Source: Myxococcaceae bacterium
Lineage (GTDB): Bacteria > Myxococcota > Myxococcia > Myxococcales > Myxococcaceae
DNA: 64,000 bases
Reading direction: 5' to 3'
Assembly: GCA_044223505.1 (NCBI GenBank)
Contig: JBGALX010000012.1
Coordinates: forward strand, 26,174-90,173
Shown here: one piece after another, positions 18,019 to 30,731 of the stretch
How the letters are laid out: each line of letters starts with the position of its first letter
Numbering within the stretch: the first letter of the stretch is position 1
Made by a program: the position numbers and the translations under genes
Notes under the pieces: model-generated
Databases searched by the model: none
The model's input: only the letters and a program-made list of their open reading frames with translations
What the model was told of the DNA's origin: nothing

Positions 18019-20115
18019 TCACCGCCTCGGCAGCAACAGCCCCTCGAGGAAGAACGCCACCACCGCGGCCACGATGAGCCACGTCCAGATGGGCGCCTTC
18101 GACTCGGTGCTCGGGCCGCCCGCCTTCACCGCGTCGTCGCCGAAGAGGCCCTTCAGTTCCTCCGGCTTCAGGCGCGTGAGGTCGCTCTCGGCCGCGTCGG
18201 TCGCCACCGCGAACGACAGCGACGGCACCACCACGCCTTCGGCTCGCGCCACGTAAGCTCCTGGCGCCGGCAGCGGCCCCGCAGCGAGCGTGCCGTCGGG
18301 CTGCTTCGTGAGCTTGAGCTCGATGCCCTCGGGCCCGCCGAGCTCGACCTCGCTCACCGGCAGCTGCGTCTGCAGCACTGCCGTCTCTCCGACGAGCACC
18401 TTCAGCTCATCGCGCTCCTCGAGCGCGCCCGCGAGCCACGCGGCGATGCGCTGCATCAGCGGCAAGAACGACGTGCGAATCGAGAAGTCGCTCCAGTCGC
18501 GATCGACCGTCGACGTGAAGAGCAGCACCTGCCCGCGCCCGACCCGCCGCGCCACCAGCGCCGGAGCGCCGTCGTCGAGCGTGCCCAGCACCTGCCCGCC
18601 CTCGGCGCCCGGCTCGAGCAGCATGTACCGCGAGAACCGCGCGCTCATCAGGCCCTCGCGCGCGCGCCCCGTGAACGGCGCCAGCACCGGGTGCTCGGCC
18701 GCCACCTGCGACAGCCGCGCCGAGCGCGCGCTGACGTCGCTCGCCCCCGGCTCGACCGCCGTCTTGAAGAGCTTCAGCCGCCGCGGCAGCACCGCGCCCA
18801 TCGACAGGTTCCACGCGTCGGGGTCGACGCGGTCGCCCATCGAGATGAACAGGCCGTGCCCGCTCTCGACGTACGCCTTGAGCCGCGCCGCCACGTCGGG
18901 CCGCGGCGCCTCGACGTTGAGCAAGAGGACCACGTCGTACTGCGAGAAGTCTTCGCGGAACGCGGCGTCGGTGTCTCGCACCACCGACCGCACCGGCGAG
19001 CCGGTCGCCTGCAGCGCCGCCTCGACGAAGAACGCCTCGTCGCGGAACTTCTGCGGCGACGGAGCCCCGTTCACCACCAGCGCCGTCAGCTCCCGCGGCA
19101 CCGGCAGCACGACCGTGCGCACGTCGTCTTCCGTCAGCGCATCGGGAGCGAGCACGCCCTCGACCACCGCCACCGGCCCGCCCGAGAACCGGTGCGTCAG
19201 CGACTTCTGCCCCGTGCCGTGCGCCGGCAGGTCGAAGAAGCCCTTCGCCACCACGCGCCCGTCGACCTTGAGCTGCAGCTCGACGTCCTTCATCGCCTCG
19301 TCCGAGAAGTTGCGCGCCGTGAACGTGAACTGAAACGCCTTCGGGTCCACCTGCGGAGCCGGCTCGGCCTTCACGTCGAGCAGCGCCCGGTTCGGCAGCT
19401 CGGTCAGGCCCGACGCGACGTCGCGCAGCACGACCTCGGGTCGAATGCGCTCGCCCTTCGGCCCCGCCACCGTCGGCAGCGGCGCCTCGGTGCGCAGCGA
19501 CGTCGCGGCGAAGTCGCTCACCAGCACGATTCGCTTGGCCGGCAGCGGGCTGTCTTCGAGCGCGCGCGCCGCGAGCTCGAGGCAGCGGCTCGCGTCGGCA
19601 GACTCGTAGTTGGGCTGGGCGTCGTCGAGCGCCTGCAGCATTCGCGCGCGGTCGAACGACAGCGGCGCCGGCGGCTGCGGAGCGGCTCCGCACACCAGCA
19701 CCGTCGCGGGCTCTTCCGGCATCAGGTCGCGGGCCGCGGCCTTCGCCTCGGCCTTGCCGCGCTCGAACAGCGTCTGCGCCTGCAGCCCGCGGCTGTCGCG
19801 CCAGCGCATCGACAGCGAGTCGTCGAGCACGATGACGGTCGCCATGGGCCCGAGGCCCGCGGTGACGGTGCCCGCCTTGGTGAGCTCGGGCCGCGCGAGG
19901 GCGATGGGCACCGCGAGCAAGATGAGCGTGCGCAGGGTGTAGAGCAGCAGCCGGCGCAGGCGCAGGCGCGACGCCGTGCGCTTCTGCGACTTGAGCACGA
20001 ACGAGATGGCGCCGAACGGGTGAGGCCGCGGCCGTCGCCGGTCGAAGAGGTGCACGAGCAGGGGGATGAGGGCACCCAGGCACCCCCAGAGCAGCAGCGG
20101 GTGCGCGAACGTCAC
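18019..20115 (-). CDS. BatA-like N-terminal double-TM (TIGR02226) / vWA-like aerotolerance-type protein
   Basis: GTG start gives VTFAHPLLLWGCLGALIPLLVHLFDRRRP, the classic BatA/TIGR02226 N-terminus. LDDSLSM is vWA-like. A C-terminal TM is present. Start overlaps the DUF58 stop (GTGA). Confidence 0.65.
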   Translation of the reverse strand: MTFAHPLLLWGCLGALIPLLVHLFDRRRPRPHPFGAISFVLKSQKRTASRLRLRRLLLYTLRTLILLAVPIALARPELTKAGTVTAGLGPMATVIVLDDSLSMRWRDSRGLQAQTLFERGKAEAKAAARDLMPEEPATVLVCGAAPQPPAPLSFDRARMLQALDDAQPNYESADASRCLELAARALEDSPLPAKRIVLVSDFAATSLRTEAPLPTVAGPKGERIRPEVVLRDVASGLTELPNRALLDVKAEPAPQVDPKAFQFTFTARNFSDEAMKDVELQLKVDGRVVAKGFFDLPAHGTGQKSLTHRFSGGPVAVVEGVLAPDALTEDDVRTVVLPVPRELTALVVNGAPSPQKFRDEAFFVEAALQATGSPVRSVVRDTDAAFREDFSQYDVVLLLNVEAPRPDVAARLKAYVESGHGLFISMGDRVDPDAWNLSMGAVLPRRLKLFKTAVEPGASDVSARSARLSQVAAEHPVLAPFTGRAREGLMSARFSRYMLLEPGAEGGQVLGTLDDGAPALVARRVGRGQVLLFTSTVDRDWSDFSIRTSFLPLMQRIAAWLAGALEERDELKVLVGETAVLQTQLPVSEVELGGPEGIELKLTKQPDGTLAAGPLPAPGAYVARAEGVVVPSLSFAVATDAAESDLTRLKPEELKGLFGDDAVKAGGPSTESKAPIWTWLIVAAVVAFFLEGLLLPRR

Positions 20116-20990
20116 CGCCCCTGCCTCCGCGCCAGAAACCGCAGCAGCACCGAGTCGAGCGGCTCGTCGGTGCGCACGCGCTCGTAGTCGACGTCGGCGG
20201 CCATGCACGTCGCCTTCGTCTCGGCGAGGAAGCGGTTGAACTCTTCGAGGTAGCTCTCGCGAATCTCGCGCGGGTTCACCTCGAGGCGGCGGTCGTCCTC
20301 CATCGAGAGGAACAGCGTCGGGTCTTCGAACGGGAACTCGAGCTCGAGCGGGTCGACGAGCTGGAAGACGGCGAGGTCGTGGCGGCGCGCCTTCAGCGCG
20401 AGCAGCCGCTTGAGCGCGTCGGCGCGGTCGTCGAAGAAGTCCGAGAACACGCAGATGAACGCCCGGCGCGGAATCTTCTCGGCCAGGTGGTCGGCCGCCG
20501 CCGCCAGGTTGGTCGTGCCGTAGGGCCCCAGCTCGTCGAGCGCCTCGAGCACGACGTTCAGGTGCGACGCGTTCGCGCGCGGCGGCACGTCGTGCAGCCC
20601 GTCGCCCGCGAACACCGTGAGGCCGGTCGCGTCTTGCTGCCGCACGAGCAGGTACGAGAGCGCCCCGGCGAGCGTGCGCGCCACGTCGAGCTTCGTCAGC
20701 GGGCCCGAGCCGTAGGCCATGCTGCCCGAGCCGTCGACCACCATCACCGCGCGCAGGTTCGTCTCGTGCTCGAAGCGCTTCACGTAGTAGCGGTCGAACT
20801 TGCCGAACGCCTTCCAGTCGAGGTGGCGCAGCTCGTCGCCCGGCGCGTACTCCTTGTGCTCGGCGAACTCGACGCTCTGACCCTGGTGCGGCGACTTGTG
20901 CAGGCCCGAGAGCACCCCCTCGACCACGGCCCGCGCGCGGAGCTTCACGCCCGAGATGCGGGACAGGGTAGCGGCGTCGAGAACGCTCAT
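20112..20990 (-). CDS. DUF58 domain protein (MoxR-associated)
   Basis: VEFAEHKEYAPGDELRHLDWKA is the DUF58 signature. vWA-like D..S.S motif at VVDGSGSM. Confidence 0.75.
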   Translation of the reverse strand: MSVLDAATLSRISGVKLRARAVVEGVLSGLHKSPHQGQSVEFAEHKEYAPGDELRHLDWKAFGKFDRYYVKRFEHETNLRAVMVVDGSGSMAYGSGPLTKLDVARTLAGALSYLLVRQQDATGLTVFAGDGLHDVPPRANASHLNVVLEALDELGPYGTTNLAAAADHLAEKIPRRAFICVFSDFFDDRADALKRLLALKARRHDLAVFQLVDPLELEFPFEDPTLFLSMEDDRRLEVNPREIRESYLEEFNRFLAETKATCMAADVDYERVRTDEPLDSVLLRFLARRQGR

Positions 20991-21051
20991 CGAAGGGTGC
21001 TACGCAACATAAGCAGCCTTTGTTCCCCGCGCTAAACTCTCCGTTCAGACC

Positions 21052-29567: not shown

Positions 29568-29729
29568 TTGAGTGTTTTCCCCTTGAGATTGAACGCAGCG
29601 GGTGCGGAGTGAATCGATTTTCAGCTGAAGCCCCGTGTGGTTGCGAGTCTTCGTTGAGGAGGCTGAGCCTACTCACACCTACCACGGCGATCAGGGCACA
29701 TTCGCGATCGGGGTGTGGACTGCCGAGTC

Positions 29730-30731
29730 TCAACCTACAGGTCGTACCTGCTCCACCAGCCTGTCGATGAGCTTCACGCTGGTGAGCCCTTCGGATTCGG
29801 CGGTGAAATTCGGCAACACGCGGTGGCGGAGGACGGGGCGGGCGAGGGCGCGCACATCGTCGACGCTGGCGACGTAACGGCCCGAAAGAATTGCGCGGGC
29901 CTTGGCGCCGATGACGAGGTACTGGGAGGCGCGGGGGCCGGCGCCCCAGCTGACGTTCTTCGCGATGAAGTCGAAGGCGCCGGGCTCTTTGGGGCGGGTG
30001 GCCCGGGCGAGCTCGACGGCGTACTTCACGACGTGATCCGGCACCGGCACCCGGCGCACGAGCTCCTGGAGGTCGCGAATGGCCTCGGGCGAGAGCACCT
30101 TCGTGAGCGCCGCGGGCGAGCCCTGCGTCGTGAGCTTCACGATCGCCTCTTCTTCAGCGGCGCTCGGGTAGCCGACGTCGACCAGGAACATGAAGCGGTC
30201 GAGCTGGGCTTCGGGCAGCGGGTACGTGCCTTCTTGCTCGATCGGGTTCTGGGTCGCGAAGACGAGAAAGGGCAGGTCGAGCGGGTACGTGCGGCCCGAC
30301 GCCGTGACGCGGTACTCCTGCATCGCCTGCAGCAGCGCGGCCTGCGTCTTCGGCGGGGTGCGGTTCACCTCGTCGGCGAGCACGATGTTCGCGAACAGCG
30401 GCCCGCGGAGGAAGCGCATCTCGCGGTGGCCGGTCGCCTTGTCCTCTTCGAGGATGTCCGTGCCCGTGATGTCGGAGGGCATCAGGTCAGGCGTGAACTG
30501 GATGCGGTTGAACGACAGGTTCAGCACGTCGGCGAGCGTCGAGATGAGCAGCGTCTTCGCGAGCCCGGGGACGCCCATGAACAGGCAGTGGCCGCGCGAG
30601 AAGAGCGCGACGAGCAGGTGCTCGACCACCTCACGCTGACCGACGACGCGCCGCTCGATCTGCCCCAGCACGTCGGACCTCGCCTTGGCCAGGGCCTCGA
30701 CTGCCTTGAGGTCTTCGCTGCCTTGAGTCAC
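29730..30731 (-). CDS. MoxR-family AAA+ ATPase
   Basis: Walker A GVPGLAKT, Walker B LADEVNR, and the MoxR lid region ([20 protein letters not shown]). Confidence 0.9.

Follow-up and report, generated by a model that had tools for sequence, protein, structure and literature searches.

MRP-type MoxR ATPases are usually encoded first in an operon with DUF58, VWA and TPR genes, and the VWA proteins are their partners (PMC11834572). The Bat operon has the order moxR-DUF58-batA-batB-batC-batD-batE, and the only genera in which Bat-like operons are known to act in tolerance to oxidative or heat stress are Bacteroides, Francisella and Riemerella (PMC11834572). Here we analyse a 64,000-nucleotide stretch of DNA from a Myxococcaceae bacterium (assembly GCA_044223505.1, contig JBGALX010000012.1, forward-strand positions 26,174 to 90,173; hereafter the window), in which moxR lies 8742 bp (8.7 kb) upstream of a DUF58/BatA pair, with seven unrelated genes between them, five of which are on the opposite strand. 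We consider it likely, at a probability of about 80%, that this is a case of ordinary operon erosion, in which insertions have split a moxR-DUF58-batA operon step by step.

Genes were called from third-position G+C (GC3; the window is ~70% G+C) and annotated with Pfam and NCBIfam (Table 1). Pfam and the sequence itself bear out the initial annotation in placing moxR (29.7-30.7 kb) on the same strand as the overlapping (GTGA) genes for DUF58 and the BatA-like protein (18.0-21.0 kb). MoxR scores 202 bits against PF07726 AAA_3 (cut-off 27) and 50.9 bits against the AAA lid family PF17863, with its Walker A (GVPGLAKT) and Walker B (IVLADE) motifs intact, while the BatA-like protein matches PF07584 BatA, VWA_2 and TIGR02226 (85 bits). 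The DUF58 stop codon TGA shares 4 bp with the GTG start codon of batA, as read directly from the sequence (GTGA at 20112-20115). As had also been annotated, no ATPase gene lies directly upstream of DUF58, where the next gene is the divergent orf315 after 61 bp, and a 921-amino-acid (aa) repeat protein (rep921) is encoded directly downstream of moxR, 162 bp away.

To place this arrangement we relied on synteny in place of a chance statistic. A scan at one genome per species returned 80 loci with orthologs of the window DUF58 (70-93% identity), onto which the window proteins were mapped. In 52 of these 80 Myxococcaceae/Archangiaceae loci, a MoxR ortholog (~80-85% identical to that of the window) abuts DUF58, in agreement with the canonical moxR-DUF58-batA order stated in the initial annotation. 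The estimated moxR-DUF58 gap is at most 26 bp in 48 of the 52 fused loci, and at most 89 bp in the remainder. The fused loci span Myxococcus, Corallococcus, Pyxidicoccus, Hyalangium, Archangium and Cystobacter, and form a compact three-gene operon with unrelated or divergent genes on either side. The window moxR is the ortholog of the first gene in this operon (~83% identical to the DUF58-abutting MoxRs of the 52 loci) and is therefore the operon's own ATPase, moved away from its partners. Judged by this synteny, contiguous moxR-DUF58-batA is the deep ancestral state and the split is derived. The initial annotation had allowed for a second moxR, or for the split being ancestral; tblastn across the 64-kb window found no second MoxR paralog, and the fused rather than the split arrangement is the deep ancestral one on the evidence of the 80 loci.

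A DUF58-BatA pair with no adjacent ATPase is nevertheless, going by the same scan, common among uncultured Myxococcaceae. In 23 of the 80 loci (~29%) there is no MoxR in the 1.2-10 kb examined upstream of DUF58, and the upstream genes vary; these 23 loci form one clade in a neighbour-joining tree of DUF58+BatA calculated without bootstrap. A 9.4-Mb Archangium contig of this clade, JASGKS010000001.1, is not represented among the 120 best MoxR homologs, each with 81% identity or more. The DUF58|batA junction is also broken in members of this clade: a DUF2378 gene occupies it in L006 and L010 (10873-11427 in both), a PAS-histidine-kinase-receiver gene in L032 (10984-13341), and in L004 there is a gap of 684 bp.

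The closest relatives of the split locus were drawn from the DUF58 scan, a MoxR homolog search and an orf315 homolog search, and their gene contexts were then retrieved. They define a lineage consisting of the window and five contigs from metagenome-assembled genomes (MAGs) or metagenomes (L001, L087, L084, L002 and L085). A concatenated MoxR+DUF58+BatA tree has the topology (L085,((L084,L002),(L001,window,L087))), and the six-genome clade, the five-genome clade without L085 and the trio of L001, the window and L087 were each recovered in 200 of 200 bootstraps; inside the trio, window+L087 received 62% and L001+L087 34%. The moxR|DUF58 junction is broken in all six members. In L002 a gap of 921 bp holds an antisense AraC-type regulator (HTH_18), in L085 a gap of ~1.2 kb (~1208 bp) holds a 165-aa Cys-rich open reading frame (ORF), and in L084 a gap of ~1.5 kb holds a 395-aa ORF without a family. 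Larger gaps are found in the trio, namely 3786 bp in L001 (an 804-aa repeat protein and antisense orf315), ~4050 bp in L087 (a 927-aa repeat protein and antisense orf315) and the 8742 bp of the window, where the repeat protein and orf315 are joined by an ECF (extracytoplasmic function) unit and an ATP-grasp gene.

By blastp the fillers are mutually unrelated, except within the trio. L002, L084 and L085, which span the deepest node of the lineage, share a DUF58-proximal sequence, GGAAG-N17-CGTTAA, located 21-25 nt before the ATG. This common motif points to a single ancestral break with an independent DUF58 promoter, and suggests that the one break created the new promoter and that the genes upstream of it then turned over. 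Of the two readings put forward in the initial annotation, synteny strongly supports the one in which a Bat-like operon received an insertion in its past, while the single insertion of ~9 kb is replaced by a nested series of three steps. As a separate observation, L085 carries a further bpMoxR/bpX5 pair (MoxR-VWA-beta-propeller ternary system; 813-1961 and 253-690) 8 kb upstream of its split operon; the pair has no counterpart in the window.

Measured against L001, which is also split, the ratio of nonsynonymous to synonymous substitution rates (dN/dS) is 0.034 for moxR, 0.14 for DUF58 and 0.15 for batA, and 0.23-0.44 for neighbouring genes; no gene of the locus is more conserved than moxR. 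The ATPase motifs of MoxR and the metal ion-dependent adhesion site (MIDAS) motifs of DUF58 and BatA are all intact. By these ratios, purifying selection on the three genes is kept up since the split, and with dN/dS values of 0.03-0.15 the MoxR-DUF58-BatA system is most likely still functional in trans.

The second reading in the initial annotation was that MoxR has been re-targeted to the repeat protein. In a wider form of this idea, the ATPase would have taken on as client or partner the product of whichever gene occupies the slot behind moxR, making the junction a functional 'cargo slot'. The properties of rep921 bear directly on this. A repeat hidden Markov model resolves seven repeats of ~103 aa, and 29 homologs with 4-11 repeats each are confined to Myxococcaceae/Archangium MAGs; the unit consensus GSISG.E...DLDNQAAG.E...LSPEAK...GETGI is conserved in the family. 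An AlphaFold2 model of the repeat (mean confidence, pLDDT, 90.8) is an all-helical bundle of five helices with no informative relative in the PDB, and rep921 has no Pfam family, VWA/MIDAS domain or signal peptide. An EF-hand or TerB-like metal-binding repeat was rejected, as neither family profile nor fold matched. All three rep921 homologs examined elsewhere lie in unrelated neighbourhoods without a MoxR within 10 kb; one homolog is located on the 9.4-Mb Archangium contig, ~95 kb from a MoxR-less DUF58-BatA locus. The arrangement in the window speaks for re-targeting in that rep921 is on the same strand as moxR at a distance of 162 bp, with no terminator between them and a spacer conserved in three genomes, and some gene is kept in the slot after moxR in all six lineage members. 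Against this stand a generic helical bundle without a VWA/MIDAS domain, and mutually unrelated fillers, among them genes for an AraC regulator and an NlpC/P60-like protein, both of which are antisense. MoxR itself is under very strong constraint (dN/dS 0.034), with no neofunctionalisation or accelerated evolution seen, and DUF58 and BatA are likewise kept under selection. Given the homolog contexts, the helical fold without VWA and the extreme conservation of MoxR, co-location in three genomes is left as the sole argument for re-targeting, which we regard as quite improbable. We find it very improbable that the junction is a functional variable slot whose post-moxR genes (encoding the 921-aa, 395-aa and 165-aa proteins) are lineage-specific clients or modulators of a MoxR-VWA machine; if it were, exchange of co-transcribed cargo would put a conserved chaperone-like system to new uses.

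Two further long ORFs of the window, 38870-41704 (minus strand, 944 aa) and 57565-60861 (minus strand, 1098 aa), have a repeat or low-complexity composition and are not homologous to rep921 by tblastn; the former contains several high-GC3 antisense ORFs.

The other filler shared by the trio, orf315, shows a papain-like alpha+beta fold of the NlpC/P60 type (Tse1-like), with no sequence-level family match in Pfam or NCBIfam. Four of its residues, C214, H202, H218 and H314, show little or no variation across 31 homologs, and C214 with H314 or H218 is a candidate catalytic pair. The family comprises 37 unannotated proteins, all of them from myxobacterial MAGs and metagenomes, and paralogs occur at other places in the same metagenome. 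PADLOC gave no matches for eight core and filler proteins, and a defence-island reading of the variable slot was rejected on that result.

What sets the window apart within the trio is a block of ~4.8 kb. In blastn, the window and L001 are collinear everywhere except at window positions 22006-26802, and the empty site between the orf315 and repeat-protein genes is a 190-bp convergent spacer in L001 and a 90-bp inverted-repeat spacer in L087. The ECF unit is absent from L001 and L087. Window positions 22190-25839 (orf368 start to orf356 stop) match positions 8321-11909 of L086 at 81.5% nucleotide identity; L086 is a 735-kb contig from the same metagenome as L087, and the flanks of its ECF unit are unrelated to those in the window. 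The ATP-grasp gene is window-specific, being absent from L001, L087 and L086, and lies outside the ECF unit of L086. The left breakpoint of the block carries its own mark, a 76-bp unit that duplicates the last 33 nt (11 codons) of orf315 plus 43 nt and sits exactly at the breakpoint. This tandem repeat occurs at one edge of the block only and is not present in L001 or L087, and orf368 has an N-terminus that is novel as far as the breakpoint. The initial annotation was correct about the ECF sigma factor, the Cys-rich protein with a lipobox (orf356), the ATP-grasp gene, the palindrome and the tandem repeat in this interval; for the 294-aa protein that follows the sigma factor, Pfam and NCBIfam matched no anti-sigma domain, and the label is given by position only.

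The palindrome belongs to a dispersed element resembling repetitive extragenic palindromic (REP) sequences, CCCTCTCCCCTACGAGGGGAGAGGG, of which the window contains four copies (793-817, 10248-10272, 22621-22645 and 26753-26777) against an expectation of 0. An in-frame copy inside orf368 encodes PHPVPLPYEGRGDAG, a peptide conserved in the L086 ortholog. We rejected the idea that 52-bp palindromic direct repeats at 22600 and 26732 are insertion boundaries: they are copies of the dispersed element, and the one within orf368 recurs as conserved coding sequence in its L086 ortholog.

Gain of the block on the window's branch is the most parsimonious reading of these comparisons; that it was transferred by illegitimate recombination at the terminator region is a guess. 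Conversely, the 8.7-kb arrangement could be ancestral to the trio, with L001 and L087 having deleted the ECF unit and ATP-grasp gene. The branching order of the trio leaves room for this, as a single loss is possible under one topology, and signs of insertion, for instance a mobility gene or a target-site duplication, were not found. However, the block is missing from both other members, whose convergent spacers are short and hairpin-like, as is typical of a terminator that has not been disturbed, while the ECF unit is intact and tightly packed at another locus, with different neighbours, in the metagenome that includes L087. The junction-specific 76-bp tandem duplication and the novel orf368 N-terminus at the breakpoint also favour gain, and we consider the deletion scenario unlikely. 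An assembly chimera joined at repeats is hardly credible. In its favour, the block is edged by the 76-bp tandem repeat on one side and the dispersed REP-like element on the other, and the exact window proteins are absent from the public collection. Such an artefact would, however, need two independent joins, neither at a shared REP copy; coding frames and the GC3 signal are continuous; and the rep921 and orf315 parts of the split are confirmed in two independent assemblies.

Signals in the intergenic regions are compatible with two separate transcription units. The moxR-rep921 spacer, which is conserved only in L001 and L087, contains no significant hairpin (RNA fold z = +0.65) and has a good ribosome-binding site (RBS) before rep921; a consensus scan found no terminator-like site in it, a scan that is uninformative at 70% G+C. 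The palindrome after the rep921 stop codon folds at -46.7 kcal/mol (z = -4.0) and may be a terminator or transcript stabiliser. In the 61-bp spacer upstream of DUF58, the sequence GGAAC-N17-CGTA occurs at 21001-21026 on the minus strand, 14 nt before the ATG, and is identical in L087. With both strands counted, the window contains only three instances of this pattern, making its position suggestive (~1e-3). Five of the six split genomes have the ECF-type motif, in its GGAAC or GGAAG form, immediately before DUF58, which hints that the DUF58-batA pair came under envelope-stress-type control separate from that of moxR, the spacer presumably carrying the promoter. In the MoxR-lacking clade, a conserved GTTA(C/A)A element is seen at a similar distance from DUF58.

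On the other side of moxR, the region 30739-32094 is of ambiguous coding strand and contains long Gly-rich tandem repeats of 15, 30, 45 and 60 bp (31190-31500). Its ortholog in L087 is a divergent gene for a 470-aa Laminin_G_3 protein that starts ~33 bp from moxR, implying that the moxR promoter region is very short.

We postulate the following history. The Myxococcaceae/Archangiaceae ancestor would have had a compact unit with a moxR-DUF58 gap of ~0-20 bp, the 4-bp DUF58/batA overlap and a sole promoter region upstream of moxR. In the ancestor of the six-genome uncultured lineage the moxR|DUF58 junction would have been broken once, becoming a permissive slot with gain and turnover of unrelated genes. 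The trio's common ancestor would then have gained the repeat-protein gene after moxR and an antisense orf315 abutting DUF58, and the window's branch the ECF unit and ATP-grasp gene (~4.8 kb) at the convergent terminator between rep921 and orf315. At present moxR, and probably rep921 along with it, would be read from moxR's own promoter, and DUF58-batA would depend on a newer one, possibly of ECF type, within the 61-bp spacer. At the inner membrane, the MoxR hexamer would still act on DUF58 and BatA, its VWA partners, in trans, and the inserted genes are probably passengers and not new MoxR clients.

Several points weigh against this history. First, the choice between one break and several in the six-genome lineage depends on a short motif, and L086 and L087 share a metagenome but may come from different organisms. 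Second, no transposase, integrase or recombinase was matched among the seven inserted genes in Pfam and NCBIfam, and neither a tRNA target, an Rfam match, a flanking direct repeat nor a target duplication was found for the blocks; a mobile-element vehicle was rejected on these grounds. Third, the ECF-type motif was noticed post hoc, and L001 has a 20-bp deletion at that place and lacks the motif; a sigma-70 consensus scan, uninformative at 70% G+C, found no promoter; what we say about promoters and about co-transcription of moxR and rep921 is inferred from sequence. Lastly, the search for a second moxR covered the 64-kb window, and another copy may lie elsewhere in the genome.

Table 1. Features of the split moxR-DUF58-batA locus, in window coordinates (TM, transmembrane; TRF, Tandem Repeats Finder)
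Feature	Position	Strand	Description
moxR	29730-30731	-	333 aa, MRP-type MoxR AAA+ ATPase; Pfam AAA_3, AAA_lid_2, bpMoxR
moxR-rep921 spacer	29568-29729	-	162 bp; RBS AAGGGGA ahead of rep921 ATG
rep921	26802-29567	-	921 aa; seven ~103-aa all-helical repeats, Pro-rich linkers
REP-like palindromic element	26732-26783		20 nt beyond rep921 stop
ATP-grasp gene, R2K clade	25843-26706	-	PF14243 R2K_3, 62.5 bits
Four-gene ECF unit	22157-25839	+	orf368, ECF sigma, putative anti-sigma, orf356
orf368	22157-23263	+	Signal peptide
ECF sigma	23310-23891	+	Sigma70_r2 and Sigma70_r4_2 domains (Pfam)
Putative anti-sigma	23888-24772	+	294 aa, single TM segment; overlaps ECF sigma by 4 bp
orf356	24769-25839	+	Lipobox, Cys/Gly-rich
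76-bp tandem repeat	21965-22148	+	2.4 copies, TRF score 310
orf315	21052-21999	+	Disordered Lys/Pro-rich N-terminus; C-terminal NlpC/P60 (Tse1-like) papain-fold domain
orf315/DUF58 divergent spacer	20991-21051	-	61 bp; ECF-type promoter-like motif at 21001-21026
DUF58	20112-20990	-	PF01882, 159 bits; VWA-fold, MIDAS DGSGS
BatA-like	18019-20115	-	698 aa; double-TM N-terminal anchor, VWA (MIDAS DDSLS), long C-terminal region

Downstream of batA, we did not find batB-E, TPR or further VWA genes: neither VWA nor TPR domains were matched in the ORFs at 17385-17939 and 16427-17353, and beyond them lie genes for a Ser/Thr kinase and an aminopeptidase.

The locus is the far end of an unusually well-resolved natural series of operon erosion, from fused operons through gaps of 0.9, 1.2, 1.5 and 3.8-4.0 kb to 8.7 kb. 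Since the core genes are under purifying selection throughout the series, MoxR and its VWA partners would need neither adjacency nor co-transcription, a useful warning for annotation pipelines in which adjacency is what defines a MoxR system. The series also flags two uncharacterised myxobacterial families, the repeat protein with its ~103-aa helical unit and the Tse1-like NlpC/P60 protein. The latter differs from Pseudomonas aeruginosa Tse1 and other NlpC/P60 amidases in having no sequence-level family match, type VI secretion system context or adjacent immunity gene.

The window shares with the Bat operon the order and common strand of its three leading components, namely an AAA_3 MoxR, a DUF58 protein with a VWA fold and a membrane-anchored BatA with BatA-N and VWA domains, with DUF58 and batA translationally coupled (PMC11834572). 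It differs in that moxR is not contiguous with DUF58, owing to the seven unrelated genes that intervene, and in that batB-E, TPR and extra VWA genes do not follow batA, whose BatA-like product of ~700 aa has a long C-terminal extension. The canonical myxobacterial operon of Myxococcus, Corallococcus, Archangium, Cystobacter and Hyalangium is closer still, with orthologs ~83% (MoxR), ~72% (DUF58) and ~58% (BatA) identical and the same DUF58/batA overlap; its moxR-DUF58 junction of 0-20 bp is, however, 8.7 kb in the window, and both operon flanks differ too. The locus is therefore not a new mechanism or system, but a known operon type in a new organisational variant.

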